Shown here one piece after another: positions 1-29,805 of a stretch of DNA of 64,000 nt. Source of the stretch: a candidate division FCPU426 bacterium (GTDB lineage: Bacteria; Oederibacteriota; Muellerivitia; Muellerivitales; Muellerivitaceae); contig CAVRAL010000005.1 in NCBI GenBank assembly GCA_963719085.1, positions 162,442-226,441 on the forward strand, given 5' to 3'. Numbering within the stretch: the first letter of the stretch is position 1; the number at the start of each line of letters is the position of its first letter. The notes beneath the pieces were generated by a model. The model had not been told where the DNA came from, did not search any database, and saw only the letters and a list, made by a program, of their open reading frames with translations. The position numbers were made by a program, and so were the translations under genes.

Positions 1-1107
1 TTGCCGGCCGTCCAGAATGAACTGTCCTTCCACGGCCCGCCTGGACTTTTCCTGTTGAAGCACCACATTGACTTCCAAATCCCGGCGCAGGCTTCTTTGG
101 TTCAAATTGCTGGAACCCACCAATACCCAATCGTCCACGACCAGTGTTTTGGCGTGCAAAATGCTTTCCTGATATTCGGCGATATGGCAGCCCGCCTTCA
201 ACAGTTTGGGATAGAAAGCCATGGAAACCCACCGGACCATCGGGATGTCGGAGGAACCTGGAAGAATCAACCGCACCTCGCAGCCCCGGCGGGCCGCCTG
301 GGCCAGGGCCCTCAGCAACGATTGGGTCGGGGTAAAATAGGGGGTCAAAACCCAAATCCTCCGGCTCGCGCCTTGAAATCGGTTCAACAATTCCCGCCGG
401 TAGGCCACCCGGAGGCGACGGGTCATCGTCAACCGGATCGGGGTTCCCGCCAACTCCCGGGTAATCCAACTTTTCAACCGGCGGCGGCCCCGGCTTCCCC
501 AAAGGCGCGGCCAGCGGTCTTCCCAGGCGAGTCGGAAGGCGGTCTGGAAAACCAAACTCGCCACGCCCGACAAGAATAATCCCGTATCCCGCCACGCTTT
601 TTTCCCCTTGGCGCGCCGAAGGTGCCAGTCCGAGACATTAAAGCTTCCCATCCAAACTTGGCGCTCATCCACCAGGCAAAGCTTGCGGTGGTCCCGGCGG
701 TTGCCGGTATTTAAAAGCGAGTGCGCCTCCCGGAATCGATGTTTGAGGTGGTCCAGCCGCAAAAGCCGGAAGGCGGTGGAAAAAATTACCGGCAAGGAAC
801 GGTAAACCCGGAAGGCGGCTCCCGCTTGGGTCAACCGGGGGCCATAATGGGCGGCGAAATCCGGGGAACCAATTCCATCCACCAGCAGGCGGACCGCCAC
901 TCCCTTTTGGGCGGCTTGGCAAAGCGCCTCGGCCACCTGATCGCCCAGCCAGCCCGGCTCAAAGATATAGGTCTCAAAGTCCACCGTTCGTTTGGCCAAC
1001 CGCACGGACCTCAAAAGATCCCGGAAATATTCGTCTCCCTTGAAATAAAGGGTTTCTTTTTTCCAAGCGGCTTTTCGAGAGATTTTATTTTGGGTGATTC
1101 TTTTCAA
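1..1107 (-). CDS. cls: Cardiolipin synthase (PLD superfamily, ClsB-like); 3' end runs off the window
   Basis: Missing from the ORF track (no stop in window). Manual translation from TTG at 1107: MKRITQNK...YFKGDEYF...VDFETYIFE...VRLLVDGIGS. Two HKD motifs: RDHRKLCLVD...MGSFN and LHAKTLVVDD...VGSSNLNQRS. Confidence 0.9.
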   Translation of the reverse strand, partial: MKRITQNKISRKAAWKKETLYFKGDEYFRDLLRSVRLAKRTVDFETYIFEPGWLGDQVAEALCQAAQKGVAVRLLVDGIGSPDFAAHYGPRLTQAGAAFRVYRSLPVIFSTAFRLLRLDHLKHRFREAHSLLNTGNRRDHRKLCLVDERQVWMGSFNVSDWHLRRAKGKKAWRDTGLFLSGVASLVFQTAFRLAWEDRWPRLWGSRGRRRLKSWITRELAGTPIRLTMTRRLRVAYRRELLNRFQGASRRIWVLTPYFTPTQSLLRALAQAARRGCEVRLILPGSSDIPMVRWVSMAFYPKLLKAGCHIAEYQESILHAKTLVVDDWVLVGSSNLNQRSLRRDLEVNVVLQQEKSRRAVEGQFILDGRQ

Positions 1108-1139
1108 AAAAACCTTTCAGTCCTCGTCCTGGTCCCGCG

Positions 1140-1820
1140 TCAACTGGCGAGCAAGCCAAGCTTTCCGGAAACCCGCGGCGCCTTGACTCCCGCCTTGATT
1201 TCGCTGAATCCCCCGCAAGCCGGGCACCGGATCACGCTCATCTCATCGGGCACGTGAAGTGTATAGGACGCGGCGCAATAGGGACAAGCCACTTTCCGGG
1301 CCAAAGGCTGGGCCGTGGAGTGGTCAAAAAGAGCCCGCCCCGTCGCGGGATCGAAAAAAGAATCGACGGCCGTGGAAACCAAGGGCTCCAAATCGCCTTG
1401 GGCGAAAGGGACGATCGCGGGCCGTGACTCCTCAAAGGCCTCCGCGATCTTGATCACATGGTCGGTCCAGGCGTTGGTGATATAAAGGGAAATGAAATGA
1501 TGAAGATCGGGGATGCGGATGGAAACCCGCTTGGAATCCTCGCAGTGCTCGAAAACATAAACATTCCGGCCTCGGGAAAAACCCGACTCAAAAAAACCGA
1601 GGTTTCGGTCATCGAACGCGGCTTGGGTCTCCCGGCTTAAAATCAGGAACAAGGCGTCGGACGCCGCGGCTTGTTTTCGGAAATCCCCGATGGGGTTCTT
1701 TCCCCCGATATTCTCGTATTCTTCCCAAACCGTTCCCACTTGGACCGCCAAAAAAACTTTTTCCAAGAAAGGTTTGAGCCTCGACTCCGCCCGGCTGTTC
1801 ACAATCAGTATTCGTTTCAA
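1140..1820 (-). CDS. TIR-like (flavodoxin-fold) domain protein with C-terminal zinc ribbon
   Basis: TIR-like pattern RILIVNS...SDALFLILS...FFESGF...VYVFE; C-terminal CPYC...CPAC; in series with neighbours. Confidence 0.55.
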   Translation of the reverse strand: MKRILIVNSRAESRLKPFLEKVFLAVQVGTVWEEYENIGGKNPIGDFRKQAAASDALFLILSRETQAAFDDRNLGFFESGFSRGRNVYVFEHCEDSKRVSIRIPDLHHFISLYITNAWTDHVIKIAEAFEESRPAIVPFAQGDLEPLVSTAVDSFFDPATGRALFDHSTAQPLARKVACPYCAASYTLHVPDEMSVIRCPACGGFSEIKAGVKAPRVSGKLGLLAS

Positions 1821-1859
1821 GAGAAACCCCCATTCATTTTTCCAGGCGGTCGGCCCGGA

Positions 1860-2489
1860 TTACTTCAAAGCGGTTTGATCAACCGGGGTCGTGGTTTGCG
1901 AAACCCCGCCCCAACCCGATTCCTGGCCCGTCCGTCCCTGACGGAAATAAATCTCCTTTTGGACATCCCCTAAAAGATCCTTCACTCCGCCGTTCATGGC
2001 GTCCCCCGCCAAGGGCAAATCAAACTTTCGGCAGGCGGTCAACTGATAGAGCACGCTCACGCCGCCCTGGGGGCAATTTTCGATGTTCCAATAACCTTGA
2101 TAAACCGAGAAATCCTGGTGGTCCACATCCTCAAAGGCGATGTTGCCTTTGGGCGTCTCATGGATTTTTAAAAGCAGATGGACCCTTTTGGTGATAAATA
2201 AGAATCCCCCCTCCATTTCCTGGACCAACAAGATGTCGTTTCGATGGCGTTTCTCGACCCGGCTGACCTTCATACTGGAAACAAACTGGGGAATATTCTC
2301 GTAATCGGTCAAAACCGCCCAGACCACCGAGCGGTCCGCCATCACGTAAAATTGGCCCTGGAGTTCGTCCACCCCGGCGTTTTCCTGCGAGGTCAGGGAA
2401 ACCGGCGCAAACGCGAGTCCGGCGCCGCAAAGCGCCGCCGCGCCCGCGGCGATCAACAGCAGTGGAAAAAACCTGTTCCGGGGTCTCAA
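1860..2489 (-). CDS. SRPBCC/polyketide cyclase (COQ10-like) lipid-binding protein with signal peptide
   Basis: VWAVLTDYENIPQFVSSM and GDF-like DFSVYQGYW motifs; hydrophobic N-terminus. Confidence 0.8.
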   Translation of the reverse strand: MRPRNRFFPLLLIAAGAAALCGAGLAFAPVSLTSQENAGVDELQGQFYVMADRSVVWAVLTDYENIPQFVSSMKVSRVEKRHRNDILLVQEMEGGFLFITKRVHLLLKIHETPKGNIAFEDVDHQDFSVYQGYWNIENCPQGGVSVLYQLTACRKFDLPLAGDAMNGGVKDLLGDVQKEIYFRQGRTGQESGWGGVSQTTTPVDQTALK

Positions 2490-2502
2490 GATAATCCTCC
2501 GG

Positions 2503-3882
2503 TCAGAACGCGAACTGGAACATCATCCGCGCCGAGGGAATCAACGAGGCGGTTTGCAGTCCCGTGGTGGCGACTTGGCTGGGCATCTCGGCCAAAACAT
2601 ACATCCCGTCGTTGCCCAAGGCTTCCGGGGTATTGATCATCCACATCGCCTCCGCCACCAGCTTGGCGTCCTCATTCAGGTGCCAGGTAATGGACGGCAG
2701 GGTGATTTCGTAAATGGGGTTGCTGCCCGTGATGGCGGTATAAGGCGTTCCCGGCGCCGCGGTGGCCGCGGGAGTGACCCGGAAAGAATTATCGGGAATC
2801 ACCACGGCGAACCTGCCGGCGATCTCCCAGGGGTTATCCCCGACCGAGGCGATCACTTCCGCCCCGCCGATATTGATCTGTCCCGAGGTGACCGTATTGC
2901 CGTTGATGACAAAAGGCGCGAAGTTGGAAGCCTTAAACTGGGCCACATTGGCTTGGGCTGTTAGGGTAAAGGTAGTGTTGCCCAAAGGCGCCCGGAACTG
3001 GGTGTCCAAACTCGCCGTCCAATACTGGGCGTTGACCGGGCCAAAATTGGCCGCTGTTTTTCCCAAAAAAGGATTCCAAGCGGAATAAAGCATCATGTTG
3101 CCATAATCGCCGTTGGCCGAGAAGGCGGTGATGTAGCCGCTTTGAAGCGACAGGTCCGTGGAGTGGCCGGCATTGCTGTCATTCTCATACATCCCATTCA
3201 AGTGCAGGGCGAACGCGCTCTGGGCAGGCTTCACGAATCCGGTCTGCGTTTGATGGAAAGGGTCTTTCGTGATCCCGTCGTCAATCCCGATCCGCAAAAA
3301 CATCAAGGGCGGAAACTCAAAGGTCTCGGGCAGGTAACGCTGAGGCAAGTTCGGGGCGCCGCTCAAAACGCCGCCCGCGAAATCCAATTGGCCCATCTGG
3401 CCGTAAAGGGACAAACCATTGTCGTATCCCGTATTGAAGAACATGTTGTAGAGAAGTGATTTTTCCGTGAAAAGCTGATTGCCTTCGTAGACCGCGCTTT
3501 CCAAGTTGGCGGGCACCTTGAACTGTCCCACCTTGACATAAACCATATCCGGGATAAGCGGGATATCGACGTTGAAATCCTTCAGGTTAATCTGGTTGTT
3601 CGTGCTGTTGACCGCTTCCCCACCGAGGCCCAGCTCAAAGTTCCACTTGTAGCCCTTGAAATTTCCCGAGCTGGTTAAGCGATCCTCAACATTGAACAGA
3701 TAGATCCTGGTATGCTCCCGGGTGGGGTCGTTGGTAACCAATTCCAGTTCGCCGAGCTCTTGAAACCGCCCGCCCAAACTGAAGGCCAGGTCGTCATTTT
3801 GAAAAATCTCAGCCGAATGGGCCCCGGACGCGAATCCCAGCAAAACCGCCATCGTCAATAGGCATTTCTGAAAAGCCTTCAT
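2503..3882 (-). CDS. Outer-membrane porin (OprO/OprP-like beta-barrel)
   Basis: Signal peptide MKAFQK...AHSA; VKVGQFKVP motif; C-terminal FQFAF BAM signal. Confidence 0.7.
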   Translation of the reverse strand: MKAFQKCLLTMAVLLGFASGAHSAEIFQNDDLAFSLGGRFQELGELELVTNDPTREHTRIYLFNVEDRLTSSGNFKGYKWNFELGLGGEAVNSTNNQINLKDFNVDIPLIPDMVYVKVGQFKVPANLESAVYEGNQLFTEKSLLYNMFFNTGYDNGLSLYGQMGQLDFAGGVLSGAPNLPQRYLPETFEFPPLMFLRIGIDDGITKDPFHQTQTGFVKPAQSAFALHLNGMYENDSNAGHSTDLSLQSGYITAFSANGDYGNMMLYSAWNPFLGKTAANFGPVNAQYWTASLDTQFRAPLGNTTFTLTAQANVAQFKASNFAPFVINGNTVTSGQINIGGAEVIASVGDNPWEIAGRFAVVIPDNSFRVTPAATAAPGTPYTAITGSNPIYEITLPSITWHLNEDAKLVAEAMWMINTPEALGNDGMYVLAEMPSQVATTGLQTASLIPSARMMFQFAF

Positions 3883-3923
3883 GTTGCTCCGCCTTTTAAA
3901 TTTGATCCTCAAAAACCTTCCGC

Positions 3924-4658
3924 TTACTTGGCCCCAAAAGTCACGTCATAGTGAATTTCGATCTCGTCCGTACAGGTGACCGTGACGATCAATATCGACA
4001 TCTTGGGCGGGGTGATCTTGAAATCGGTCATCTTGAGCTTCTGGACGCCCTTCAACCGAACCTGGTTATTCTGAAAAGTCGCGTCGGCGGTCAGTGTCAC
4101 CGGGGCGGACTGACCCGCCACCGTCACGGTCCCCCGACCGGTCATGACGTAAGCGTCCGGAGACGCGCCCGCCGTTAAAGTTTCGCCGGTTAAGTTGAAC
4201 TTAATTTCGGGATAGTCTTTGGCCTGAAGCGCCTGATAGGCGTTTTTGTCCAGTCCCGTATCCTTTGAGTTAAGGGTTTTGAGCGGAACTACCAGGGTCA
4301 TGGCCTTGACTTGGCCGGTTTGAAGCGCCGTGATCAAACTATGGGGGGCCGCCCCCTTAAGAAGGGCCGAACCTTCCAGCGCTTTCGCCGTCATTTGGTA
4401 GTTATGAAGGGTCGAGCCGCCCTCCATGTATAAGAAGCTTCCTGGTTGCAGTGTCAGGACCCGTCCCGCGCCCGCCATTCCCTCGACAGGCCCTACGGTT
4501 TCGGCCGCCTTCTCGTACCAATGGATATAGCCCTTCATCAACTGGTTGCCGCCGTCTTGACTCTGCCCCGGCGCGGCGCCGCTATCAGCCCAAACCACCG
4601 GCATCAAACCCAAAAACAAACCCAAAATCCCCGCCAAAACTCGATCGAAATTTCTCAT
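3924..4658 (-). CDS. YceI family lipid/isoprenoid-binding protein
   Basis: EGGSTLH, LNSKDTGLDKNAY, YPEIKF, MTDFKITPP; signal peptide. Confidence 0.85.
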   Translation of the reverse strand: MRNFDRVLAGILGLFLGLMPVVWADSGAAPGQSQDGGNQLMKGYIHWYEKAAETVGPVEGMAGAGRVLTLQPGSFLYMEGGSTLHNYQMTAKALEGSALLKGAAPHSLITALQTGQVKAMTLVVPLKTLNSKDTGLDKNAYQALQAKDYPEIKFNLTGETLTAGASPDAYVMTGRGTVTVAGQSAPVTLTADATFQNNQVRLKGVQKLKMTDFKITPPKMSILIVTVTCTDEIEIHYDVTFGAK

Positions 4659-4689
4659 GATTGACTTCCTTTTTTTGATCCTTCATCCT

Positions 4690-5772
4690 TTAGTTCCATA
4701 GGACTTCCATCGTGGCGGCGCCCTGGATGGCCAGGCGCACTTCAATCCCCTCGTTGTCGGCGAATCCATCCAAGACCCGGAAGGAGGTCACTTGGGTTTG
4801 CAGACGGGCAAAGGGCCCCAGGGGACGGTTCAGGGCCTTGTCGATTTTTCCCTTAATCACGTCCAGCTTGACGCCGACCGGAAGCACGGCGATCTTTCGG
4901 AGTTGGTTTTTAAAATCCGATTTGAAAATCCAATCGGCGATCTGAAGCAGTAGGTCGCTGGACTTGATGTCATAGTCAAGATCCGGCAGGTCGAACATCC
5001 TCAGTTGGGGCAGGTAGCGGGGGGTTCCCCGCAAGTAAACCGTCAGGTGCGCCGGTTTGCCGGTGAAGTTGATGATGGGCGGGTTGTAATTGAGCTTTAC
5101 CTCGGCGATGACTTGGCCGCCCGACCCATACAAGCGCACGCCTTCCAAGGTGAGTTTTCGCTCGCCCGTGCCGGGGAAAACCATGCCGATCAGCTTAAGT
5201 CGGGGGTCTTTAAAATATAAATTCGCCTCTTCATAACTAATTCGGGTATTGGTGATGGCCTGAAAAACGCCCGGACCCGGCTGAAAATGCCCCAAGGGCG
5301 GGATCTCCACCGGATGGGTCACGGGTTCGGGCCCGAAGACAATCTCCGGCTCCGCCGTCATTTCTAAAACCGTATGCAGGGTGGAAACCCGCTTCAAATC
5401 GGTGCGCATGGTCCCGATACACAAGGTCTCCGGTTGAATCATCAGCCAAAGATCCTTATCCAGGAAAATGGGTACCTGCATCCGGGCCCAGAGATCCCCC
5501 ACATGGGATTTCAAATTAAGCCCGGGCGTGTTGTAAAGGTCGGGTACCAGTTGGCGCAGGCCGCCCTTGACCAGATTGGCCAAATGTTGGACCAGGTCGC
5601 CCCCGCTGGGAAAGATGATATCCACCGGCAAGCGCACCAGGCCCGGCTTGACCGCGGGAAAGCTTCGAACCGGCGGGGGTAATACGGGCACGTAGTGCGA
5701 AGGAAATGTGGCGCAGCCCATGGAGAAAACCGGCAAAAGGAGGATCAAAAGCCGGCGCCCGGTCGGGTTCAT
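4690..5772 (-). CDS. DUF4403-like putative lipoprotein
   Basis: Lipobox-like SMGC; DLWLMIQP, VYLRGTPRY and LDYDI patterns. Confidence 0.6.
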   Translation of the reverse strand: MNPTGRRLLILLLPVFSMGCATFPSHYVPVLPPPVRSFPAVKPGLVRLPVDIIFPSGGDLVQHLANLVKGGLRQLVPDLYNTPGLNLKSHVGDLWARMQVPIFLDKDLWLMIQPETLCIGTMRTDLKRVSTLHTVLEMTAEPEIVFGPEPVTHPVEIPPLGHFQPGPGVFQAITNTRISYEEANLYFKDPRLKLIGMVFPGTGERKLTLEGVRLYGSGGQVIAEVKLNYNPPIINFTGKPAHLTVYLRGTPRYLPQLRMFDLPDLDYDIKSSDLLLQIADWIFKSDFKNQLRKIAVLPVGVKLDVIKGKIDKALNRPLGPFARLQTQVTSFRVLDGFADNEGIEVRLAIQGAATMEVLWN

Positions 5773-6995
5773 GGTTTCTCATTTTCTAAAACTTGTTTTT
5801 CTTCCCGGGCCCGATCCCCCGACATTTCCACCGCGATGGCGGCGGATTGCTCGGCCGACACGCCCTCGGTGCGCCTTTCATATTCCTTTTCGCCCTGGTC
5901 GTCCTTTTCCCGCTGCGCCCCATCCGCCGCCTGTGCCTGTTCCCCCGGCAGTTGAACCCGCAGTTCCTCAATCAGCATCATGGCCGCCGCCGCGAAAGGA
6001 AGCGCCAGCAGAAGGCCCACGACGCCCATCAAGGTTCCCCCCGCCAAAAGCGAAAAAAGAACCACCGTGGAAGGCAGACGCAAGGCATGCCCGTAAACCC
6101 GTGGCACCAAAACCCGGCTCTCGAATTCCATATAAAGAAGCATCAAAGCCAGCACCGAGAGGGTGATCACCGGGCCGTTGGGAAGGGACGCGAGAACCGC
6201 CGTCGCGATCGGAAAAAAAATACCGATATAAGGCAGGATGTCGGCCACTGCCCCGAAAAAGGCCAAAGCCAAGGCGTTTTGAACCCCGCAACAGACCAAA
6301 AGCACCAGGATAAAAACGCCAATGGACGCGCTGGTGATGACCTGCCCGCGGATATAGGCGCCCACGATGGTCTCCAGATTCATCATCACGCGGGAAAGCC
6401 GGATATGGTGGGAGCGGGGGACGACGGCGAAAAGGCCGCCCCGAAGCCGGTCCCGGTCGATCATGATATAGAGGGCCAGGAAGAGGGTGCTCAGCACATA
6501 AGCGACGAAGCTAAGCGCCTCCATGGAATAAGCGAAGGCGGTGGCCCCGGCGGTGCTGACCTGTCCGCCGTATTTAAACTGCCGCAGCCATTTCGCCAAA
6601 GTCTGGCTGAGGGGATAGGCGGACAGCTTATCCGCCAATTGATCCCGCAAAGCCGGTTCCTGATCCAAGATGATCGCGCCCTGCGCCAGGAGCGCCGGAA
6701 TGGTCAGGATGGCCGCCCCCAGGATCAGGACCACCAAGGAGCCGAAGACAATCCCGATGGCGGCCCCCCGGCGGATTCCTTTTTTTTCCAGCCAATGGGT
6801 GGCCGGATTCAAGGTACCCACCATAAAAAAAGCGGCGACCAAGACTAAGAGCACCGGCAAAAGCTTGAAGATCACCCATAAACCGGCCAGCACCGCGACC
6901 AAGGTCATCATGGTCGAAGGCGCCAGTTCGAAACGCACTACGCGCCGGATGACCTTCCTCGAATTTTCCGACTCACTCTTAATCGCCAAAGTCAC
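5769..6995 (-). CDS. AI-2E family transporter
   Basis: Multi-TM; GAYIRGQ, ILPYIG and LVPRVYG motifs. Confidence 0.9.
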   Translation of the reverse strand: MTLAIKSESENSRKVIRRVVRFELAPSTMMTLVAVLAGLWVIFKLLPVLLVLVAAFFMVGTLNPATHWLEKKGIRRGAAIGIVFGSLVVLILGAAILTIPALLAQGAIILDQEPALRDQLADKLSAYPLSQTLAKWLRQFKYGGQVSTAGATAFAYSMEALSFVAYVLSTLFLALYIMIDRDRLRGGLFAVVPRSHHIRLSRVMMNLETIVGAYIRGQVITSASIGVFILVLLVCCGVQNALALAFFGAVADILPYIGIFFPIATAVLASLPNGPVITLSVLALMLLYMEFESRVLVPRVYGHALRLPSTVVLFSLLAGGTLMGVVGLLLALPFAAAAMMLIEELRVQLPGEQAQAADGAQREKDDQGEKEYERRTEGVSAEQSAAIAVEMSGDRAREEKQVLENEKP

Positions 6996-7037
6996 GGCTC
7001 ACTCCTGGATGGGGGTCTTCCCGAAAATAAATCGAAC

Positions 7038-7463
7038 CTAGAAATAATTGATCGGAAGCGGGTTCCGGGGCTCCACATGCTTCACAAAGGCCGGAGTGTC
7101 ATTGGCCAACTGCTTGGCGTGAACGATCTGGTCCGCGGATTGGCCTTTTTGAATGACCAACACCTGTCCGGGGGTAATCTGGTCCGGATCCTGAATCTCA
7201 TCCCGGTTGGTTTTGAAGATCAAAGGCCATTGAGTGGAATCGGCATAGATGCCCTCGTGATCCGAGATCGCCCAAAGGGTATCCCCGGACTGAACCACAT
7301 ATTGCTCCGCTGGCGCGGCCGCCACTACCGTCGGCGCGGCCTGTTCGGTCACGGGCGCTTGCGGAACATCGGTCACATCCATTTTTTTCGCCGCGCAGCC
7401 GCAGGCCATCATCACCATCAGACCCAGACTAAAAACCACCGCCGTCTTCTCATATTTTTTCAT
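7038..7463 (-). CDS. LysM peptidoglycan-binding lipoprotein
   Basis: Lipobox ACGC; YVVQSGDTLWAIS...WPLIFKTNRDEIQDPDQITPGQVL. Confidence 0.9.
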   Translation of the reverse strand: MKKYEKTAVVFSLGLMVMMACGCAAKKMDVTDVPQAPVTEQAAPTVVAAAPAEQYVVQSGDTLWAISDHEGIYADSTQWPLIFKTNRDEIQDPDQITPGQVLVIQKGQSADQIVHAKQLANDTPAFVKHVEPRNPLPINYF

Positions 7464-7558
7464 TTCTTTTTTCCTTTTAAGTTTTCAAGGCTTTCCGCCC
7501 GGTCAAAAGCGGACAGCGGGTGAACAGCGGATCCTCCCGGAAGGGGAAAACCCGGGCA

Positions 7559-8041
7559 TCAATTCGCGGACTGGCCGTGGGCTTCCACAAACCACAACTG
7601 CTTGTCAACATTTCGGGAAACTTCGGTCAGGATGTCCGCCGTATCCGCGTCGTCCACCTCAACGGCCTTCTGGATGGTCCCCCGGACCGATTCGCCGTAA
7701 GACGCCAAAGCGTGGGACAGGGACGCGACGTGTTCCTTGCCGCTGGAAATCGTCACTGGATAAACGGGCAGGCTGGATTTTTGGTCTACCGGGCCCAAGG
7801 TGCCGATCGCGATGCCGCCCAATTGAACGATTCTTTCCGCGATCAGGTCCGAATAGCCTTCGGCCGCTTCCGCGACCTTGTCAAACAGCTCGTGCAAGGC
7901 GATAAAACTGGGGCCCTTCACGTTCCAATGGGCCTGCTTGGCTTGAAGCGTCAAGTCGATCGAATCCACCAGGCGGCCCTGAAGCAGGGTCGTCACTTGA
8001 ATCCTGACTTTTTCCGGCAAATTGTTCTTGGTCGGATACAT
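7559..8041 (-). CDS. dps: Dps DNA-protecting ferritin-like protein
   Basis: KQAHWNVKGPSFIALHELFD, DLIAERI, DKQLWF. Confidence 0.97.
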   Translation of the reverse strand: MYPTKNNLPEKVRIQVTTLLQGRLVDSIDLTLQAKQAHWNVKGPSFIALHELFDKVAEAAEGYSDLIAERIVQLGGIAIGTLGPVDQKSSLPVYPVTISSGKEHVASLSHALASYGESVRGTIQKAVEVDDADTADILTEVSRNVDKQLWFVEAHGQSAN

Positions 8042-8071
8042 AAAAACCCGCTTTCTTTCGGCTCGAAATTT

Positions 8072-8230
8072 TCAATCCTCATCCACCAGCGCAAACTGCG
8101 TTTTGGGTTCCCCGCAGGAAGGACAAGCGCCCAGGACCCACCGGTTGCGGGATTTCAGTTCCCCGCACTCCAGGCACTTCCATAAAAGCTCCGTCCGGTC
8201 GGAATTGGCGTCATAGAGATAAATTTCCAC
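8072..8230 (-). CDS. Small rubredoxin-like/Zn-ribbon protein (52 aa)
   Basis: Below the ORF-track cutoff. GTG start after GGAGG; MEIYLYDANSDRTELLWKCLECGE...ACPSCGEPKTQFALVDED*. Confidence 0.8.
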   Translation of the reverse strand: MEIYLYDANSDRTELLWKCLECGELKSRNRWVLGACPSCGEPKTQFALVDED

Positions 8231-8248
8231 AAGCCCTCCGGCCGGGCG

Positions 8249-8527
8249 TCAACCCTGGCTTTTGCGGGAAGGGGTGAAAACCCTGAAAATGGACAGGAGC
8301 AAAATCGCCCCCAGAATGGACATGCCAAGCACTTCCCAATACCCGATTAGCGTGATCTGGAACCAGTAGGCGCAATAGCCGCCTAGAAAAGCGCCGGCCA
8401 CACCCACGACCACATCCCCTAAAATGCCCATCCCCGAACCTTCCACCAAGACGCTGGCAATCCATCCCGCCAGTCCTCCGGTAATTAAAAACCAAACCAA
8501 ATCGTGAAGCTGCATCGAGTTATCCAC
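8249..8527 (-). CDS. GlsB/YeaQ/YmgE (transglycosylase-associated) stress membrane protein
   Basis: GGLAGWIAS...GILGDVVVGVAGAFLGG pattern. Confidence 0.9.
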   Translation of the reverse strand: MDNSMQLHDLVWFLITGGLAGWIASVLVEGSGMGILGDVVVGVAGAFLGGYCAYWFQITLIGYWEVLGMSILGAILLLSIFRVFTPSRKSQG

Positions 8528-8550
8528 AGAATCCTCCGAATCAAAAAATA

Positions 8551-8576
8551 TTTCTCCGGGCTTGGGACCGGAGAAA
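8551..8576 (-). terminator. Stem-loop between the OMP gene and glsB
   Basis: TTTCTCCGG...CCGGAGAAA inverted repeat followed by a T-rich tract on the minus strand. Confidence 0.4.
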
Positions 8577-8584
8577 CCCGGCGG

Positions 8585-9145: not shown

Positions 9146-9213
9146 TTTTTCCTTTTTTCTTGCAGCTAAGGCCCGTGGGCTTCTCAACCCACGGTTCCCC
9201 GCTTTTCAACCGC

Positions 9214-9345
9214 TTATATGTAACGAACCACAAAGAGGATCAGCGCGACCACCAACAATACGTGGACCACTCCGCCCGCCGTATTGGAGGTCGCCATCCC
9301 CAGAAGCCATAAAACCAGCAGAATCACAGCGATGGTCACCAACAT
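9214..9345 (-). CDS. lmo0937 family (DUF5670) small membrane protein (43 aa)
   Basis: Not in the ORF track. MLVTIAVILLVLWLLGMATSNTAGGVVHVLLVVALILFVVRYI*. Confidence 0.85.
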   Translation of the reverse strand: MLVTIAVILLVLWLLGMATSNTAGGVVHVLLVVALILFVVRYI

Positions 9346-10328: not shown

Positions 10329-10375
10329 AGGCTTTACCTCGCTTCGCTTTCCAGGCATCGGATGAGGTCCTGTAA

Positions 10376-22300: not shown

Positions 22301-25300
22301 AATGGAATTTCGGCTCTATGGCCGGCGGATTTGGCGGTTTTTCACCGATTTCACCTTGGCGGAAGATCATTATCTGCCGCCGGACAATTTCCAGGAAGAC
22401 CCGGACCCCGTCCTGGCCCACCGCAGTTCCCCGACCAACTTCGGCCTTCATCTGCTCTCCATCGTCACCGCCCATGATTTTGGATGGTGCGGCTGGAGTG
22501 AAATGACGGACCGCCTTGAGGCGACCCTGGAAAGTTTGAAAGGCCTTCCCCGGTTTCGGGGGCATTTTTACAATTGGATCGAGACCCAATCCCTCCAGTT
22601 GTTGGAACCCAAATACATTTCCACCGTGGACAGCGGCAACCTGGCGGGCCATCTGCTCACCTTGTCCCAATCCTGCCGGGACCTGACCCGCCAACCGCTT
22701 TTTTCAACCTCCGTGCTTTCGGGCATCCAGGATGTTGTCCTCCTGTTGAAAAGGGCCGCGGAAGAACTCCCGCATCATGGCCGCGCCGCGATCACTCCCT
22801 TAAGCCAGCTTCAAAAGGAAATTTCCCTCTTTGAGCTTCAAATGGCTGAAATGGATCATTTCACCTCCCACACCAAATGGGCCGGCGCCTGGGATAAATT
22901 GGACCTACAGGCCGAGACGCTCAAAGACACGGCCCACGCCTTCGCCTCGGACCAGCGGGCGGATGAAAAAATCGAGTTGACGGTTTGGGCCGACCTGGTG
23001 GCCGCCGATGTCAAAAGCCACGCCCGGGATTTCCGGCGCTTGTTCCCCTGGGTCTACGCCCTTTCCGACAGCGCCCACCTGAGCGCCGAAACCGCCGAAG
23101 AAAAAGAATTTCAGGCTTCCATTCAAAGGCTCCTGTCCGTCGACCTGACCCTGAGCCAAGCTCCCGCTCATTGCGAGAAAGCGCTGGAGGCTTTCGAGCA
23201 ATGGCGTCAATCCCGGCTCCACCAAGAAAAATCCCCCGGCGAGGACGTTTATTTCGACCAGGTGGTTGAGGCGCTGAGCCTCTCCTCCAAAAATTGCCGG
23301 CGGATGCTGGACCGGCTCAATGGGATCGCCGATCTTTCCCGGCGTTTATTCGACGAAATGGATTTCAGCTTTTTGCTGAACCCGAAGAAAAAACTTTTCG
23401 CCATTGGCTACCGGGTCAACGAGGAGCAATTGGACGAGAGCTGTTATGACCTGCTGGCGTCCGAGTGCCGCCTGGCCAGCTATGTGTCCATCATTAAAGG
23501 GGATGTGCCGGTTTCCCATTGGTTTCGCCTGAGCCGGGGGATGGTGGCCGAGGAGGGCGAGGCGGTCTTGATGTCTTGGTCCGGTTCCATGTTTGAGTAT
23601 TTGATGCCGTCCCTGGTCATGGAAACGCCCGACGGAAGTTTGCTCAACCAAACCTGTGCGCGAGTGGTCCGGCGCCAAATCGAGTACGGCAAATTTCGGG
23701 GCGTTCCCTGGGGCATCTCCGAAGCCGGGTATAACGCGCGCGACTTAAACCTCACTTATCAATATTCCAACTTTGGCATCCCCGGCCTGGGGTTGAAACG
23801 GGGCTTGACCAAAGACCTGGTGGTGGCCCCCTACGCGACCGCCCTGGCGGCCATGGTGGATCCCCAGGAGGCCCTGATCAACCTTAAAAAGCTTGAGCGG
23901 CTTGGCGCCCGGAGCGCTTATGGTTTTTACGAGTCCTTGGACTATACGCCGACCCGCTTGCGCGAAAACGAGCCCTTCGCCCTGGTGCGCTCCTATATGG
24001 CCCATCATCAAGGCATGTCGCTGCTTTCTTTTTCCAATGTGGTCCACAACGGCCTATTGCGGCGGCGCTTTCACATGGATCCCCTGGTTCAATCGGGCGA
24101 GCTTCTGCTTCAAGAAAGAACGCCCCGCAACCTGGGCGCCGTTCGCGACCAGGTGCGGGAGGTGGAAATCCACAGCATCCAGGAATCCGTCCCCGCCATC
24201 ATCCGAAAAATCAGGTCGCCCCATCATCCCGTCCCCAGCTCCCATTTATTGTCCAACGGCCGTTACGCGCTCATGATCACCGCCGCCGGATCCGGCTACA
24301 GCCTGTGGAAAAACCGAGCGGTCACCCGGTGGCGGGAAGACGTCACCCGGGACCACACGGGAAGCTACTTTTTCCTCCGGGATATCCATAGCGGTTCGGT
24401 TTGGTCGGCGGGCTATCAGCCCACCCTGGCGGATCCGCTTCAATACCAAGCCATCTTTTCCGAGGATCGGGCAAAAATCTCGCGGCTGGACCACGCCATC
24501 ACCACGGACATGGAAGTACTTGTTTCCGCGGAGGATGATGCCGAGCTGCGCCGAATTTCCCTGACCAATCACGGAACCGACGAGCGTGAAATCGAGATTA
24601 CCTCTTACGCGGAAGTCGTTATCGCCTCGCCGGATTCGGACCTGGCCCATCCGGCGTTCTCGAACCTTTTTGTCCAAACCGAATATCTCCCTGAACTGGG
24701 CGCCTTGGTGGCGACCCGGCGCCCCCGGTCTTCCGGCGAAGACCGGGTCTTTGTGGCCCAAGTGCTCTCATCGGAAAACGAGCCCTTCGGGGAATTGGAA
24801 TACGAGACGGACCGGGCCAAATTTATCGGCCGGGGCCGCGCGCTTCGAAAACCCCTCTCGGTCATGGACGGCCGCTCCCTTTCCAATACGGTGGGCGCGG
24901 TGCTGGACCCCATTCTCAGCCTGCGGGTCAAGGTGAGGATCCAACCGGGAGCGACGGTTAAAATTTGCTTCACCACCCTGTTGGCCCCCACCGGCATTGA
25001 GATGCTGGCCATGGTGGAAAAATACCACAACGCTTCCGCCTTTGAGCGGTCCTCCAACCTGGTCTGGACCCAATCCAAGGCCCAGCTTCATCATCTGGGA
25101 ATCGAGCTGGACGAGGCCCAGCTTTTCCAAAAACTCGCCAATCGGATCCTTTTTTCCGATCCCCTGATGCGGCCCACCAGCGAGATTTTGAAAAAGAACC
25201 GGATGAACGTGACCGGCCTCTGGTCCCGGGGGATTTCGGGGGACTTCCCCATACTTTTAGTCCGGATCGATGACCTGGAGGACCAGGGGATGATCCGCCA

Positions 25301-28100
25301 ACTGCTTCGCGCCCATGAATATTGGCGGCTCAAGCGCCTGGCGGTGGACATTGTGATCTTAAATGAGAAGGCCTCGTCCTATGTGCAGGACCTCCAAACG
25401 GCCTTGGAAGGCATGGTCCGCGGAAGCGAGGCCACTTCCTCAGGGAATCCCGACCTGCTGCCGGGAAAAATTTTCGTTTTGCGGAATGACCTGTTGGATA
25501 TCCGGGAAAAGAATCTTTTGCTCACCGTCGCCCGGGCCATCCTCAACAGCCGGCAAGGCACCCTGGCCGAGCAGGTCATGCGGGTGCGTAAATTCGAGAG
25601 TTTCAAATCCATTTCCACCAAGCGGTTGGATGAAATGGAAGTCTTCCGCCTTCAAAGCCGCTCCGAATCCGCCCTGACCGTGCCTCCCTTGGAATTTTTC
25701 AACGGCATCGGGGGATTCGCCCAAGGCGGGCGGGAATACGTGATCGTCCTGGAAAAGGGCCAACACACCCCGGCGCCTTGGATCAACGTGATCGCCAACC
25801 CCGATTTCGGGTTTCAAGTGTCCGAATCGGGCGCGGGCTACACCTGGTCGGTCAATAGCCGGGAGAACCAACTCACGCCCTGGTCCAATGACCCGGTGGT
25901 GGACCCGAGCGGCGAGGCCTTCTTTATCAGCGACCTGGACTCGGGCCAGGTCTGGTGCCCCACCGCCTCCCCCATCCGCTTGGAAAACGCCACCTACATG
26001 ACACGGCATGGCGCCGGTTACAGTGTTTTTGAAAATGGTTCCAACGAGATTCACAGTGAACTTACCCAGTTCGTGGACGCCTCCGATTCGGTGAAAATCT
26101 CCCGGCTGGTTTTGGAAAACAACTCCGACCGGGTCCGGCAGTTGTCGGTGACCGGCTATGTGGAATGGGTGCTGGGCTTTTCCCGGGTCAAAACCGCCCC
26201 CTGGATCGTCACCGAGCGGGACGGTGAAACCGGAGCTCTCTTCGCCGTCAACCCGCTCAATTCGGAATTCGGGAACCGAACGGCCTTTATGGATTTTAAC
26301 GGGACCGCGTCCGCCTGGACCTGCGACCGTTCGGAATTCATCGGGCGTAACGGAAGTTTGGAGCGGCCCGCGGCCCTGATGCGCCGGGAGAAATTAAGCG
26401 GCGCCACGGGGGCCGGCTTCGACCCCTGCGGGGTTTTGCAGGCCCAAATCCGGCTGGAACCCGGCGAAAAAAAGCAGGTCGATTTTTTTCTCGGACAAGC
26501 CGAAGGCCGGGACCAAGCCCGGGACTTGGTGCGTAAATACCGGCATTCGAACCTGGAATCCCGGTTTCAAACCGTGGTCCGCGGCTGGGACTCGTTCCTG
26601 GGAAAAATACAGGTTCAAACTCCCGATCGCTCGATGGACATCCTGCTCAACCACTGGCTTCTTTACCAAACCCTGGCCTGCCGTTTTTGGGCGCGGGCGG
26701 CTTTTTACCAAGCGGGGGGCGCCTTTGGATTCCGCGATCAATTACAGGATGGGATGGCCATTGTGGCCTCCGACCCCGGACTGGCCCGTTCCCATATCCT
26801 CAAAACCGCCGCCCGGCAGTTTATTGAGGGCGACGTCCAGCATTGGTGGCATCCCCCCATGGGCCGTGGGGTACGCACCCGAATTTCGGATGACCGCCTC
26901 TGGCTTCCTTATGTGACGCTTCACTATTTACGGGAGACCCAGGATGTCAGCATCCTCGACGAGCCGGTCCCTTTTATTGAAGGAGCCCCGCTCAACCCCG
27001 GCCAGGACGATTCTTATTTTGAGCCGGCGGTATCCCGGGAACCGGCCTTGAGCCTTTATGAGCATTGCGCCCGGGCCATCGATGTCAGCCTGCAAACCGG
27101 CGTCCATGACCTGCCCTTGATGGGAAGCGGCGATTGGAACGACGGGATGAACCGGGTCGGACACGGGGGAAAAGGTGAAAGTGTTTGGCTCGCTTGGTTC
27201 CTTCATGAAGTTTTGACCGAGATGGCGCCTTGGGCCAAGGATCGGGGAGAGGAAGAACGCCAGGAAATTTGGACCGCCCACGCCCAAAAACTAAAGACCG
27301 CTTTGGAAACCCAGGGCTGGGACGGCGACTGGTACAAACGCGCCTTTTTCGACGATGGTTTCCCCTTGGGCTCGAGCGAGAACATGGAATGTAAAATCGA
27401 CTCCATCGCCCAAACTTGGGCTGTTTTATCCGGCGCCGGCGATCTGTCCAAATCGCTTCAAGCCATAAAGGCCGTGGAGGAGCAACTCATCCGCGCCCAG
27501 GACCATTTGGTCCTTTTATTCACCCCGCCCTTCAACCAAACCCCGAAAGATCCGGGTTACATCAAAGGTTATGTCCCCGGGGTGCGGGAAAACGGGGGCC
27601 AATATACCCATGCCGCCATTTGGGTCGCCTGCGCTTACGCGAAGCTGGGGATGGGAAAAAAGGCCGCCGATTTGTTCGCCATGCTCAACCCCATCAACCA
27701 CGCCTTGACCCGCACCCAGGTAGGCACTTATAAATCTGAACCCTATGTCATGGCCGCGGATATTTACGCCAAAGCCCCTCACGTGGGCCGCGGAGGCTGG
27801 ACCTGGTACACGGGCTCCGCCGGATGGATGGCGCGGGCCGGGATGGAATATATCTTAGGCATCCATCGGCGGGGCCCGGCGCTTTATTTTGATCCCTGCA
27901 TCCCGCCGGAATGGCCCGGGTTCAAAGTCAGTTATCAACATGGATTGTCGACTTATGAAATTCAATTTGAAAACCCCAATCACGTTTCCAAAGGCATTCA
28001 AAAAATCGAGTTGGACGGACGACCGGTCGAAGCGTCAAATGACACGGTCGAGCTAAAAGATGATGGAAAAAATCACGCCGTCAAAGTGGTGATGGGCTGA
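19305..28100 (+). CDS. ndvB: Cyclic beta-1,2-glucan synthase (Cgs/NdvB/ChvB): GT84 + glucoamylase-like + GH94 domains
   Basis: 2931 aa; WERKRGKL, TLDADT, SHDLFEG, RWIRGDW, SWSGSMFEY, GFRDQLQD, GDWNDG, RENGGQYTH, WYTGSAGW. Confidence 0.93.
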   Translation: MTPSLSSLQDLFRSPFKFLLSSVPEEPIRSELFSLERFDQHARSLAAAQTISDNPKSGVSLTPRLRENERVLQEAFRYITGEVQKKKPISPAGEWLIDSFYVVEEQLRDIKRYLPHNFYNELPKLSDGFLKGYPRVYGLAWAYVAHTDSHFDPDSLTHFVRSYQQVQPLTIGEIWALAITLRVVMVDNLRRIAIYLVTSQEARQEADAFVDELLGLIEESSEAGHPSAAKLRQRSVHPAFLVQLIQRLRYQDPAGIPAVNWLNERLAAEKTTAEDLVNSVHSRQAANNLTVRNIVTSFRSMISFDWQIFFEQVSQVQGILAHHPHFEKMDFMTRNSYRSAVEEIAKGSQKDESEIAHRAVQKTEEAAGGPNHSERLQDPGYYLLAEGRTEFEKEVGFRVPVKKRFLRLCMDYPALTYMGNVLLMTFVILIIALLLNAGLSLPEAILLFVLGFFPASDLAVSWVNRWVTGMLPPRHLSRLEFPDGPPAWFRTFVVVPTLLGKETEISEQIEKLEVHYLSNPEGDVRFALLTDWADSSVESSPEDERKLSLALQRVADLNQKHGPAPEGGPRFFLFHRKRLWNPSEGKWMGWERKRGKLHEFNLLLRGAVDTTYGASASLPPGTRYVITLDADTKLPPGVVTELVGILAHPLNQARLDPRSKKVVEGYGILQPRITSFLPSENEKSIFQRLFSGDCGIDPYASAVSDVYQDLFNEGSFTGKGIYDVDAYEKSMEGRIPENSLLSHDLFEGSFARCGYASDLEFFEEFPSHAEISTARNHRWIRGDWQLFPWIFGREGAALSILSRWKMLDNLRRSLSPLGTVALLIAVLFLPPANPALWIGLALLGIGFPSFISFFDDLAFWRRALHWRDQLDEISRDFLLGAGQFTVNLILIANRAWMHLDAIARTLWRLFVSRRDLLEWTTAAQAKSSASLSASSFWRRMKGSVFIGVLTAAAAAIGNPKALSLAIPFSLLWLGAPWFARFISLPGSRGVAVPLSPEQIMEFRLYGRRIWRFFTDFTLAEDHYLPPDNFQEDPDPVLAHRSSPTNFGLHLLSIVTAHDFGWCGWSEMTDRLEATLESLKGLPRFRGHFYNWIETQSLQLLEPKYISTVDSGNLAGHLLTLSQSCRDLTRQPLFSTSVLSGIQDVVLLLKRAAEELPHHGRAAITPLSQLQKEISLFELQMAEMDHFTSHTKWAGAWDKLDLQAETLKDTAHAFASDQRADEKIELTVWADLVAADVKSHARDFRRLFPWVYALSDSAHLSAETAEEKEFQASIQRLLSVDLTLSQAPAHCEKALEAFEQWRQSRLHQEKSPGEDVYFDQVVEALSLSSKNCRRMLDRLNGIADLSRRLFDEMDFSFLLNPKKKLFAIGYRVNEEQLDESCYDLLASECRLASYVSIIKGDVPVSHWFRLSRGMVAEEGEAVLMSWSGSMFEYLMPSLVMETPDGSLLNQTCARVVRRQIEYGKFRGVPWGISEAGYNARDLNLTYQYSNFGIPGLGLKRGLTKDLVVAPYATALAAMVDPQEALINLKKLERLGARSAYGFYESLDYTPTRLRENEPFALVRSYMAHHQGMSLLSFSNVVHNGLLRRRFHMDPLVQSGELLLQERTPRNLGAVRDQVREVEIHSIQESVPAIIRKIRSPHHPVPSSHLLSNGRYALMITAAGSGYSLWKNRAVTRWREDVTRDHTGSYFFLRDIHSGSVWSAGYQPTLADPLQYQAIFSEDRAKISRLDHAITTDMEVLVSAEDDAELRRISLTNHGTDEREIEITSYAEVVIASPDSDLAHPAFSNLFVQTEYLPELGALVATRRPRSSGEDRVFVAQVLSSENEPFGELEYETDRAKFIGRGRALRKPLSVMDGRSLSNTVGAVLDPILSLRVKVRIQPGATVKICFTTLLAPTGIEMLAMVEKYHNASAFERSSNLVWTQSKAQLHHLGIELDEAQLFQKLANRILFSDPLMRPTSEILKKNRMNVTGLWSRGISGDFPILLVRIDDLEDQGMIRQLLRAHEYWRLKRLAVDIVILNEKASSYVQDLQTALEGMVRGSEATSSGNPDLLPGKIFVLRNDLLDIREKNLLLTVARAILNSRQGTLAEQVMRVRKFESFKSISTKRLDEMEVFRLQSRSESALTVPPLEFFNGIGGFAQGGREYVIVLEKGQHTPAPWINVIANPDFGFQVSESGAGYTWSVNSRENQLTPWSNDPVVDPSGEAFFISDLDSGQVWCPTASPIRLENATYMTRHGAGYSVFENGSNEIHSELTQFVDASDSVKISRLVLENNSDRVRQLSVTGYVEWVLGFSRVKTAPWIVTERDGETGALFAVNPLNSEFGNRTAFMDFNGTASAWTCDRSEFIGRNGSLERPAALMRREKLSGATGAGFDPCGVLQAQIRLEPGEKKQVDFFLGQAEGRDQARDLVRKYRHSNLESRFQTVVRGWDSFLGKIQVQTPDRSMDILLNHWLLYQTLACRFWARAAFYQAGGAFGFRDQLQDGMAIVASDPGLARSHILKTAARQFIEGDVQHWWHPPMGRGVRTRISDDRLWLPYVTLHYLRETQDVSILDEPVPFIEGAPLNPGQDDSYFEPAVSREPALSLYEHCARAIDVSLQTGVHDLPLMGSGDWNDGMNRVGHGGKGESVWLAWFLHEVLTEMAPWAKDRGEEERQEIWTAHAQKLKTALETQGWDGDWYKRAFFDDGFPLGSSENMECKIDSIAQTWAVLSGAGDLSKSLQAIKAVEEQLIRAQDHLVLLFTPPFNQTPKDPGYIKGYVPGVRENGGQYTHAAIWVACAYAKLGMGKKAADLFAMLNPINHALTRTQVGTYKSEPYVMAADIYAKAPHVGRGGWTWYTGSAGWMARAGMEYILGIHRRGPALYFDPCIPPEWPGFKVSYQHGLSTYEIQFENPNHVSKGIQKIELDGRPVEASNDTVELKDDGKNHAVKVVMG

Positions 28101-28979: not shown

Positions 28980-29016
28980 CGATCAAAATGATTTTTTATT
29001 TTTATCACTTTGATCG
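28980..29016. promoter_or_regulatory. Tandem candidate UAS upstream of P6
   Basis: CGATCAAAATGATTT (28980-28994) and TTATCACTTTGATCG (29002-29016). Confidence 0.75.
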
Positions 29017-29101: not shown

Positions 29102-29150
29102 CTTCATCATCCCAACATTTAAATCCGCGCTTTATTTTGAAAGGTAACTC

Positions 29151-29312
29151 ATGAAATTTTCGGGCTGGTTCATCGGCCAAAAGGGCCAAACAAACCTCGG
29201 CTATATCCTCCTCGGGGTAGCGCTGACCATCGGCGTTATTTTTTTGGTGGAATACATCCACCATGAAAACGGCGATATCGAGATTCACCCGCCGCACGTG
29301 GAAGTGCATTAG
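29151..29312 (+). CDS. Small membrane protein (53 aa) with a class III signal peptide-like N-terminus
   Basis: Not in the ORF track. AAGGT RBS; MKFSGWFIGQKGQTNLGYILLGVALTIGVIFLVEYIHHENGDIEIHPPHVEVH*. Confidence 0.7.
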   Translation: MKFSGWFIGQKGQTNLGYILLGVALTIGVIFLVEYIHHENGDIEIHPPHVEVH

Positions 29313-29363
29313 TCCGATAAACTTTTGCCGGTCTTTTTAAACTACTTGATGGGGGAATGAAAA

Positions 29364-29546
29364 ATGATTACAGGCTTACTGGGTTTACTGATATTTATCG
29401 GCGACATCGTGGCGATCGTCTCCATCCTGCAAAGCAAAGCGGAAACGACGGCCAAACTCTTATGGTGTCTTTTGGTTCTGGCGCTTCCCGTGTTAGGGCT
29501 CATTATTTGGTTTTTGGCCGGCCCGCGGAATGTATCCGCCCGCTGA
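29364..29546 (+). CDS. Stand-alone PLDc N-terminal domain protein
   Basis: DIVAIVSILQS...KLLWCLLVLALPVLGLIIWF. Confidence 0.85.
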   Translation: MITGLLGLLIFIGDIVAIVSILQSKAETTAKLLWCLLVLALPVLGLIIWFLAGPRNVSAR

Positions 29547-29571
29547 GACAAAAACCTTCCAGGAGGCCCAA

Positions 29572-29805
29572 ATGCCTGATTTAAGGGGATCCGATCCCAA
29601 GGATGTTGAATTGGAAAACACCGTTTCCCGCGCGCTCCATGGCTTGGTCTCGGACTGCCATATCAGCGCGTTGGCCGGGCACGTCACGATTTCGGGCAAG
29701 GTGGATGATTTTGGCGCCAAACGGGACATCTATTTGACGGTCCAAAGCGTGGCCGGGGTGAAGACTATTTCGAACCTCATCCGGGTCACTCCCATCGGGG
29801 ATTAA
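29572..29805 (+). CDS. BON domain protein
   Basis: AGGAGG RBS; GHVTISGKV...VAGVKTISNLIRV. Confidence 0.85.
   Translation: MPDLRGSDPKDVELENTVSRALHGLVSDCHISALAGHVTISGKVDDFGAKRDIYLTVQSVAGVKTISNLIRVTPIGD

Follow-up and report, generated by a model that had tools for sequence, protein, structure and literature searches.

A probable sigma-54 regulon of envelope and protective genes around a XylR/DmpR-type activator in an uncultured FCPU426 bacterium

In textbooks, activators of the XylR/DmpR type are the switches of aromatic catabolism, and they have found wide use as biosensors. Here we analyse a stretch of 64,000 nucleotides from a candidate division FCPU426 bacterium (positions 162442-226441 of contig C5 in genome G000; the whole stretch is called the window below), in which the gene for a putative activator of this type (12612-14240, minus strand) lies among six sigma-54-type promoters, P1 to P6. 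We put at roughly 0.75 the probability that these elements form part of a conserved sigma-54 regulon, with six promoters in the window and ten in the genome, and with the product of the gene at 12612-14240 as its most probable activator. The core of an earlier sequence-only reading of this DNA found support in each computational test that we made.

The closest described proteins are XylR, DmpR (CapR), MopR and PoxR, with which the activator shares the domain order from end to end, a sensor that matches their structures and conserved Zn ligands. In systems of the XylR/DmpR type, too, a -24/-12 promoter is preceded at 50-140 nt by paired A/T-rich dyads, as is the case here; the enhancers and the consensus promoter of these regulators are treated in PMC3063778. 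At the MobR plasmid locus two 18-nt repeats stand upstream of TGGCAC-N5-TTGT, and the core ATCAAA is shared with the dyad described below. In contrast, the activator in the window stays far below the MobR cut-off (295 bits against 999) and does not have the phenol-anchoring His. Its presumed targets are envelope and protective genes behind ten promoters, whereas XylR, DmpR and MopR serve a catabolic operon with one or two promoters, and its sensor is found, within its phylum, in one uncultured family only.

In the phage-shock response, as is predicted here, sigma-54 and a dedicated activator drive an envelope-stress output; PspF itself is not known to carry a sensor domain, and its control lies with PspA. 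PexR of Myxococcus xanthus is a one-component sigma-54 activator of the GAF type in peroxide defence; according to PMC12754779 it binds dyad repeats located upstream of the genes ahpC and katB, carries a metal-binding sensor and acts as both repressor and activator. The locus described here is similar in its one-component sigma-54 activator, in its dyad repeats at protective genes and in its metal-binding sensor, but the sensor is of the XylR_N/V4R and not of the GAF type, and the predicted regulon is several-fold larger than the two genes given for PexR. Regulons of RpoS, SigB and EcfG include Dps, BON/OsmY-like, lmo0937-family and GlsB-like proteins and an osmoprotective glucan. Their content thus overlaps with that found here, including PRC-barrel proteins (a PRC-barrel gene with an EcfG-type promoter is described in Sphingomonas melonis, PMC6599016), but they depend on a sigma-70-family factor and partner switching and not on sigma-54 and an ATPase activator, as is predicted for the window. 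Other work on sigma-54 covers control of the cell exterior (PMC3162934), a redox-sensing PAS activator (PMC8359166) and phylum-wide regulon trends (PMC12316311). In our literature search, neither a stress-type regulon under a V4R/XylR-type activator nor a link of sigma-54 with Dps, pirin, YceI and BON came up, and a search for an enhancer consensus of XylR gave no result.

Sigma-54-type promoters and their upstream dyads

The genome measures 3.04 Mb in five contigs and is 99% complete. It contains one full-length rpoN open reading frame (ORF) of 530 amino acids with AID, CBD and DBD, so the earlier sequence-only reading of this DNA, which presupposed an intact rpoN, holds on this point. About ten complete sigma-54 activators are encoded in the genome, one of them inside the window at 12612-14240.

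Six promoters ending in CTTGCT had been proposed, and all were recovered in place with the pattern GG-N7-CTTGCT, each of them facing a gene: P1 (10376-10391, minus strand; CGGTATGAGACTTGCT), the divergent pair P2 (11440-11455, minus) and P3 (11630-11645, plus), the divergent pair P4 (17923-17938, minus) and P5 (18127-18142, plus), and P6 (29086-29101, plus). On both strands of the window the pattern was found seven times against 1.80 expected (SD 1.38), and none of 100 shuffled sequences reached seven. The seventh copy (49694-49708, minus) lies in or at coding sequence with no dyad near and was excluded, as was a sigma-54-like GGCATG-N4-TTGC at 30873-30888, also in or at coding sequence and without a dyad. 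The loose core GG-N8-TTGC was not enriched in the window (48 against 58.95 expected), so the signal resides in the extended motif. An unfiltered scan of the window with a position weight matrix (PWM) gave 19.7-27.1 bits for P1 to P6 and 12.7 bits for the next best site; no further promoter above 12.7 bits was seen before the GlsB-like, Dps, AI-2E, cls and SnoaL genes.

Between the 16-mer and the likely start codon lie about 48 nt at P1, 62 nt at P2, 107 nt at P3, 58 nt at P5 and 49 nt at P6. P4 stands 228-273 nt before a PRC-barrel gene, or else before a doubtful ORF of 51 amino acids (17745-17900). This ORF, which has no family and a non-coding look, is the only one in the segment 17696-17922 (minus), where a long leader or a small RNA is possible.

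The GG and GC elements of the sites lie exactly 10 nt apart, TGGCAC-N5-TTGCW is matched, and the motif fits the classical sigma-54 consensus as quoted in PMC3063778. One could nevertheless suppose that the shared 16-mers are copies of a dispersed repeat or promoters of another sigma factor, because the T before GG is missing in all six window sites, whereas the other sigma-54-like promoters of the genome are of the TGGCAC type. However, this T is present in many of the copies found in relatives, only the -24 and -12 blocks are conserved while the spacer varies, and the sites face genes at leader distances. The offset of GG is also fixed: when an exact dyad with a nearby CTTGC[TC] was used as an anchor in all sequences examined, GG was found at the exact -24 offset in 64 of 86 cases; a reversed control hexamer occurs 24 times. 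It is thus very improbable that the 16-mers are anything other than sigma-54-type promoters. In addition, a PWM built from 19 sites of relatives only was run over the whole genome, and its six best hits were P4, E3, P5, P2, E4 and P3, where E1, E3 and E4 denote promoters outside the window; E1 ranked 8th, P1 11th and P6 20th.

Upstream of every promoter there is one or, more often, two candidate enhancer dyads of the form (G)ATCA-N3-TGAT(C). The candidate enhancer of P1 (10499-10532) is a pair of dyads at a spacing of 23 bp, one exact (10499-10509) and one with a single mismatch (10522-10532). A single exact dyad (11537-11547) lies centrally between P2 and P3, 87.5 nt from the former and 88.5 nt from the latter. 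P4 and P5 are likewise arranged around a common candidate enhancer (18046-18076), where the dyad at 18046-18056 has one mismatch and the other, at 18066-18076 and thus at a spacing of 20 bp, has two; the candidate enhancer of P6 (28982-29014) has two exact dyads in inverted orientation, 28982-28992 and 29004-29014, 22 bp apart. The spacing within the pairs, 20-23 bp, corresponds to about two helical turns. Measured from the dyad centre to the first G of GG, the distances in the window are 56.5-136.5 nt, in keeping with the 50-145 nt proposed before, and over all ten promoters 47-137 nt. The divergent pairs are asymmetric, also in relatives, in that promoters of the GGCT(T/C)-TTTCTTGCT type lie nearer to the dyad than those of the GGCA(C/T)G-CCTTGCT type.

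Exact ATCA-N3-TGAT occurs six times in the window against 0.52 expected, and none of 100 shuffles reached six, so the palindrome is clearly more frequent than in random sequence. Four of the six copies lie upstream of promoters (starting at 10499, 11537, 28982 and 29004) and two inside coding sequence. The exact form GATCAAARTGAT has seven copies in the genome, four of them in the window. Joint scans for promoter and dyad gave four more pairs outside the window, which brings the number in the genome to ten: C1:596280, into a second lmo0937-family gene; C1:678156, into a DUF2959 lipoprotein gene; C1:1097805, into the gene of an ice-binding-like lipoprotein; and C4:505088, into that of a basic peptide of 39 amino acids. 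A dyad with at most one mismatch was present within 200 nt upstream of 10/10 regulon promoters, compared with 0/5 other sigma-54-like promoters of the genome. We also noticed a dyad pair at C1:1112849 (locus L074) that precedes a RibD_C gene by 30-95 nt; the gene of a second RpoD-class sigma factor (C1:1109874-1111712) comes after RibD_C on that strand.

The embedded activator and the control of its gene

The gene at 12612-14240 (minus) encodes a protein of 542 amino acids with an XylR_N and V4R sensor, a sigma-54 AAA+ domain with the GAFTGA motif, an AAA lid and HTH_8, which is the domain order of XylR, DmpR and MopR. The NCBIfam model for MobR aligns over residues 7-533 with 294.8 bits, and the equivalog cut-off is not reached. 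The sensor is homologous to the structures of PoxR, DmpR (CapR) and MopR (PDB 5fru, 6iy8 and 5kbe; E-values 3e-19 to 1e-15). We surveyed key residues in 111 full-length members of the subfamily, drawn from 195 clusters and none of them bearing a functional name; GAFTGA was present in 90 and GSFTGA in 21. The Zn site of MopR (C155, E178, C181 and C189, where we take E178 to be part of the site) corresponds to C135, E158, C161 and C169, which are invariant in all 111 members. The three Cys are named as Zn ligands of MopR in PMC9556785, which also gives the numbering for H106, the residue that anchors phenol. At the position of this His the window protein has Leu, and none of the 111 members has His (Tyr 52, Leu 49, Phe 5, Met 3, Ser 2). 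The pocket Trp (MopR Trp134) is retained in the window protein and in 109 of the members, and the pair needed to hold a phenol hydroxyl group is therefore incomplete owing to the replaced His. Behind the promoters examined we found no hydroxylase or ring-cleavage pathway, and thus nothing like an aromatic catabolic operon.

These features bear on whether the regulon, though real, might serve a specific response, for example to a hydrophobic or electrophilic toxicant, to oxidants, or to drying or freezing, with a ligand bound in the V4R pocket as in XylR and DmpR. The homology of the sensor to the ligand-binding domains of PoxR, DmpR and MopR, together with the conserved Trp and Zn ligands, would agree with this, as would outputs such as a pirin/quercetinase-type cupin, aldehyde and alcohol dehydrogenases, DoxX, SOD, KatG and ice-binding-like proteins, and the YqhC-like AraC regulator with reductase genes that adjoins the regulon. 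On the other hand, the outputs come without a catabolic pathway, the phenol-anchoring His is missing throughout the subfamily, and envelope proteins predominate in what is a broad set of genes. We regard a specific response as a genuine possibility, although a somewhat doubtful one.

The region upstream of the activator gene is conserved in every activator ortholog or paralog examined (17 distinct versions from genomes). It contains a sigma-70-like -10 element, TAnnAT, with an overlapping dyad, and a second dyad about 80 nt upstream. In the window, the predicted sigma-70-type -10 (14409-14414, minus, within 14400-14491) is overlapped by a degenerate dyad at 14400-14410, and 1-mismatch dyads lie at 14446-14456 and 14481-14491. 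The leader element that follows, a candidate structured RNA at 14304-14373 (minus), belongs to a conserved element of about 85 nt that comprises strongly conserved unpaired blocks and a hairpin with a loop of variable length. In the 17 sequences, 97.1% of the cells pair and 5 of 12 pairs show a compensatory change; none of 500 shuffles reached this value, and slid controls paired at 24-58%. When the set was enlarged to 28 sequences, however, a different structure was predicted, five sequences did not keep the lower part of the hairpin paired and the energy was weak, so the hairpin is only a candidate. An Rfam search of the leader returned only a noise match (purD, E 0.88).

Additionally, metagenomes were scanned for the leader core. 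Twelve of the 80 loci fetched were real, 11 of them with an activator 175-265 nt downstream; locus L176 has the full leader motif, and its sequence ends before any gene. The remaining loci matched by chance, which is to be expected when only 17 bases are fixed. In the window and in loci L017, L020 and L097 the activator gene lies downstream of a regulon operon and is co-oriented with it. Because of this position and of the dyads at its own sigma-70-like promoter, negative and positive feedback are both possible, and a dual repressor-activator role such as that described for PexR (PMC12754779) would fit dyads placed in this way. In one relative, a gene for a group II intron reverse transcriptase/maturase (L018:5779-7146) was seen about 800 nt upstream of the activator gene.

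Co-inheritance of activator, dyads and target genes

We examined co-inheritance in 30 genomes besides G000. Activator orthologs (70-80% identity, one to three copies) were found in G002, G003, G006, G008, G010, G012, G013, G014, G016 and G018, and a partial one in G011; none was found in G001, G004, G005, G007, G009, G015 and G017, which belong to the same family. Exact GATCAAARTGAT occurs 4-12 times per genome in the twelve activator-bearing genomes, among them G000, and 0, 1, 0, 0, 0, 3 and 0 times in the seven without it; 12 genomes of other families have 0-4 copies each. A pirin ortholog, mostly adjoining the activator gene, is present in 12/12 genomes with the activator and 0/7 without it, and a Dps ortholog in 7/12 and 0/7, respectively. 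The sensor domain was detected in 19 of 99 genomes of the phylum, all of one family (18 of 30, plus G000), and in none of 68 genomes of 22 other families. The module thus behaves as a co-inherited accessory island in which activator, dyads, pirin and Dps are gained and lost together. The contig that holds the window (C5, 226 kb) has 49.2% G+C, compared with 53-54% in the other large contigs. In several relatives, too, the regulon genes are found on one contig, an island-like distribution.

In six relatives we predicted 54 promoter-plus-dyad pairs in 36 dyad-anchored regions, at thresholds of at least 14 bits for the PWM and a dyad with at most one mismatch 35-175 nt upstream. ORFs beside or downstream of these promoters (91, 140 and 34 proteins) were searched against Pfam. 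AI-2E was found among them in five of the six genomes, rhodanese, Sod_Fe_C, YceI, BON, LysM, ice-binding-like proteins and pirin in three each, and PLDc_2 cardiolipin synthase, Transgly_assoc, DUF2934 and DoxX in two each. PRC, DedA, DUF4403, SRPBCC, SnoaL and Zn-dependent alcohol dehydrogenase were also seen near the promoters, as were receiver-only response regulators and Crp-type regulators, and many of the ORFs have no family. About 320 nt separate a dyad pair from the gene of a KatG-type peroxidase (L023:12045-14240), but we found no promoter directed towards this gene. In G018, the GlsB-like, YceI and cls genes stand behind one promoter. Families that occupy the first 8,500 nt of the window are therefore directly promoter-linked elsewhere.

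It could be argued that the dyad is bound by some other protein, such as a regulator of the Crp or AraC type or a different member of the set of roughly ten activators, and that the embedded activator controls at most its neighbours. Its binding to the dyad is deduced from sequence, the regulon of relatives includes genes of Crp-family proteins and of response regulators, and exact dyads exist without sigma-54 promoters. Nevertheless, it is the embedded activator that dyad number, pirin and Dps track across the relatives, and its gene lies within the cluster in every genome examined, with dyads where its own promoter is predicted. In G000, no fewer than five further activator genes sit beside their own canonical TGGCAC-type promoters, which have no dyad; this pattern fits the statement in PMC8359166 that activators usually adjoin their own promoters. 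The chance that another protein is responsible seems small to us. The earlier assignment of the regulon to the embedded activator can be kept in the sense that this protein, because of its GAFTGA motif, its location inside the regulon and its joint presence with dyad, pirin and Dps, is the best candidate, while its contact with the dyads is a prediction.

Genes behind the promoters and the meaning of the regulon

The gene labels of the sequence-only reading (Dps, lmo0937, BON, PRC, cardiolipin synthase and glucan synthase) were borne out by profile searches. Dps scored 187.8 bits against an NCBIfam cut-off of 114 and the lmo0937-family protein 48.3 bits against 30; the GlsB-like protein (Transgly_assoc) fell just short of its cut-off, with 24.7 bits against 25.3.

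The presumed P1 operon (minus) starts with a rhodanese gene (9969-10358), followed by genes for a secreted protein of 169 amino acids without a family (9371-9880), a small lmo0937-family (DUF5670) membrane protein of 43 amino acids (9217-9345) and, in fourth place, an outer-membrane beta-barrel protein (8585-9187). In relatives, P1-type promoters precede a protein of 167-178 amino acids without a Pfam family, which resembles the secreted protein in size. Next comes a co-oriented, tightly packed block (1-8527, minus) that could be reached from P1 only by read-through: GlsB-like (8249-8527), DUF7130 (8072-8230), Dps (7559-8041), LysM (7038-7463), AI-2E (5769-6995), DUF4403 (4690-5772), YceI (3924-4658), porin-like (2503-3912), SRPBCC (1860-2489), Zn-ribbon (1140-1820) and a PLDc_2 cardiolipin synthase (1-1107) that runs off the window. 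Two ORFs on the opposite strand, 7077-7523 and 7520-8185 (plus), were discarded as spurious antisense frames.

The predicted P2 operon (10513-11444, minus) comprises a YceI lipoprotein gene (likely start 11378) and one for a membrane protein of 82 amino acids (10513-10761), and P3 faces a pirin gene (11753-12451, plus) whose product combines Pirin with a quercetinase-type C-terminal cupin. A second pirin paralog (43957-44649, plus) is 62% identical to it; the region upstream of this gene is A/T-rich, and neither promoter nor dyad was found there. P4 is followed by PRC-barrel (16877-17695), aldehyde dehydrogenase (15359-16741) and DedA/VTT (14447-15160) genes, a putative operon (14447-17695, minus) that is co-oriented with the activator gene. 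The P5 operon (18201-28100, plus) would contain DUF2934 (18201-18398), an outer-membrane barrel (18614-19216) and a glucan synthase (19305-28100) of 2931 amino acids and of the GH94-type cyclic beta-1,2-glucan synthase family. That of P6 (29151-29805, plus) would encode a membrane protein of 53 amino acids (29151-29312) and a BON-domain protein (29530-29805). ORFs 17745-17900, 29151-29312, 29357-29584 and 10513-10761 matched no family in NCBIfam or Pfam. Adjoining the regulon, at 29828-34251 (minus), a YqhC-like AraC_N/HTH_18 regulator gene lies beside genes for CMD/AhpD-like, cupin, F420-type NADP oxidoreductase, SDR and aldo-keto reductase proteins, a cluster that looks like aldehyde or electrophile detoxification.

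A programme of roughly 30 genes had been suggested. About 13 genes do lie directly behind the six promoters; the rest would have to be reached by read-through, with a total of up to 27-28, and the suggested number is thus a maximum. This concerns 14-15 genes (GlsB-like through cls, aldehyde dehydrogenase, DedA and the activator itself), which would need transcription past a hairpin or across gaps of 135-206 nt.

If the regulon operates as we propose, the activator would be a one-component enhancer-binding protein of XylR/DmpR/MopR architecture whose XylR_N/V4R sensor would hold the AAA+ domain inactive until a signal arrives. It would then oligomerise on the dyad pairs and contact the promoter-bound sigma-54 holoenzyme through GAFTGA, and ATP hydrolysis would open the promoter. 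The output would be envelope remodelling (outer-membrane proteins, lipoproteins, YceI, BON, LysM, GlsB-like and lmo0937 proteins, DedA, cardiolipin synthase and cyclic beta-glucan) together with protection (Dps, pirin, rhodanese and aldehyde dehydrogenase, to which SOD and KatG may be added in relatives).

Several observations weigh against the proposed regulon. Both dyads of P4 and P5 are degenerate. At three other loci with exact dyads (C1:201329, C1:1112849-1112910 and C4:426004) we looked for a sigma-54 promoter and found none, so the dyad is not exclusive to this promoter class; these dyads may be repression sites, or simply unrelated. A rule that asked for GG-N8-TTGC together with a dyad selected the sites on which the PWMs were trained, and of 34 candidate rows 8 were removed by hand as coding-region or weak (the combined PWM has 29 sites). 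The genome with three dyads and no activator found, G015, is 82% complete. The relatives share descent and are not independent samples, so counts across them overstate independence. After the fourth P1 gene there is a terminator-like hairpin of 10 bp (8550-8577), and the regulon membership of the next 11 genes therefore rests on synteny and on the relatives. Finally, many ORFs downstream of the promoters have no family, and the word stress is taken from annotation.

With regard to this label, 17 Sigma70_r2 matches were found in the genome, and seven were scanned against NCBIfam: two of RpoD class, three of ECF or SigJ type, and two group-2/RpoH-like factors of 354 and 285 amino acids, both below the RpoS and RpoH cut-offs. 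None of the seven reached the cut-offs for RpoS or SigB/F/G, while for EcfG there was no specific search. Since the promoters are of the -24/-12 type, master control by a sigma-70-family factor of the RpoS, SigB or EcfG kind is not what we see, but we cannot take it as established that sigma-54 acts here in place of a stress sigma factor. The gene set resembles a general-stress or dormancy set, and general stress would be a reading of the annotations. In its widest form, the idea would be that sigma-54 and the V4R activator are the master general-stress or dormancy switch of the family, a stand-in for RpoS, SigB or EcfG, which senses an endogenous hydrophobic or redox signal through the Zn-bearing pocket, and that two things gate the synthesis of the activator, namely a structured leader RNA of a kind not described before and negative autoregulation at a sigma-70 promoter. 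As a whole, this seems to us rather unlikely.

A chassis of the XylR/DmpR type thus appears to have been rewired so as to serve an envelope and protection regulon with many promoters, and its pocket is unable to hold phenol in the manner described for its relatives. Since activator, dyads, pirin and Dps are gained and lost jointly, the evolution of regulons could be studied cleanly here. If our reading is correct, it would point to a new class of ligands for V4R sensors and provide a defined pair of promoter and enhancer for tests in a heterologous host, and a stress programme based on sigma-54 would become known from a lineage so far seen in metagenomes only.

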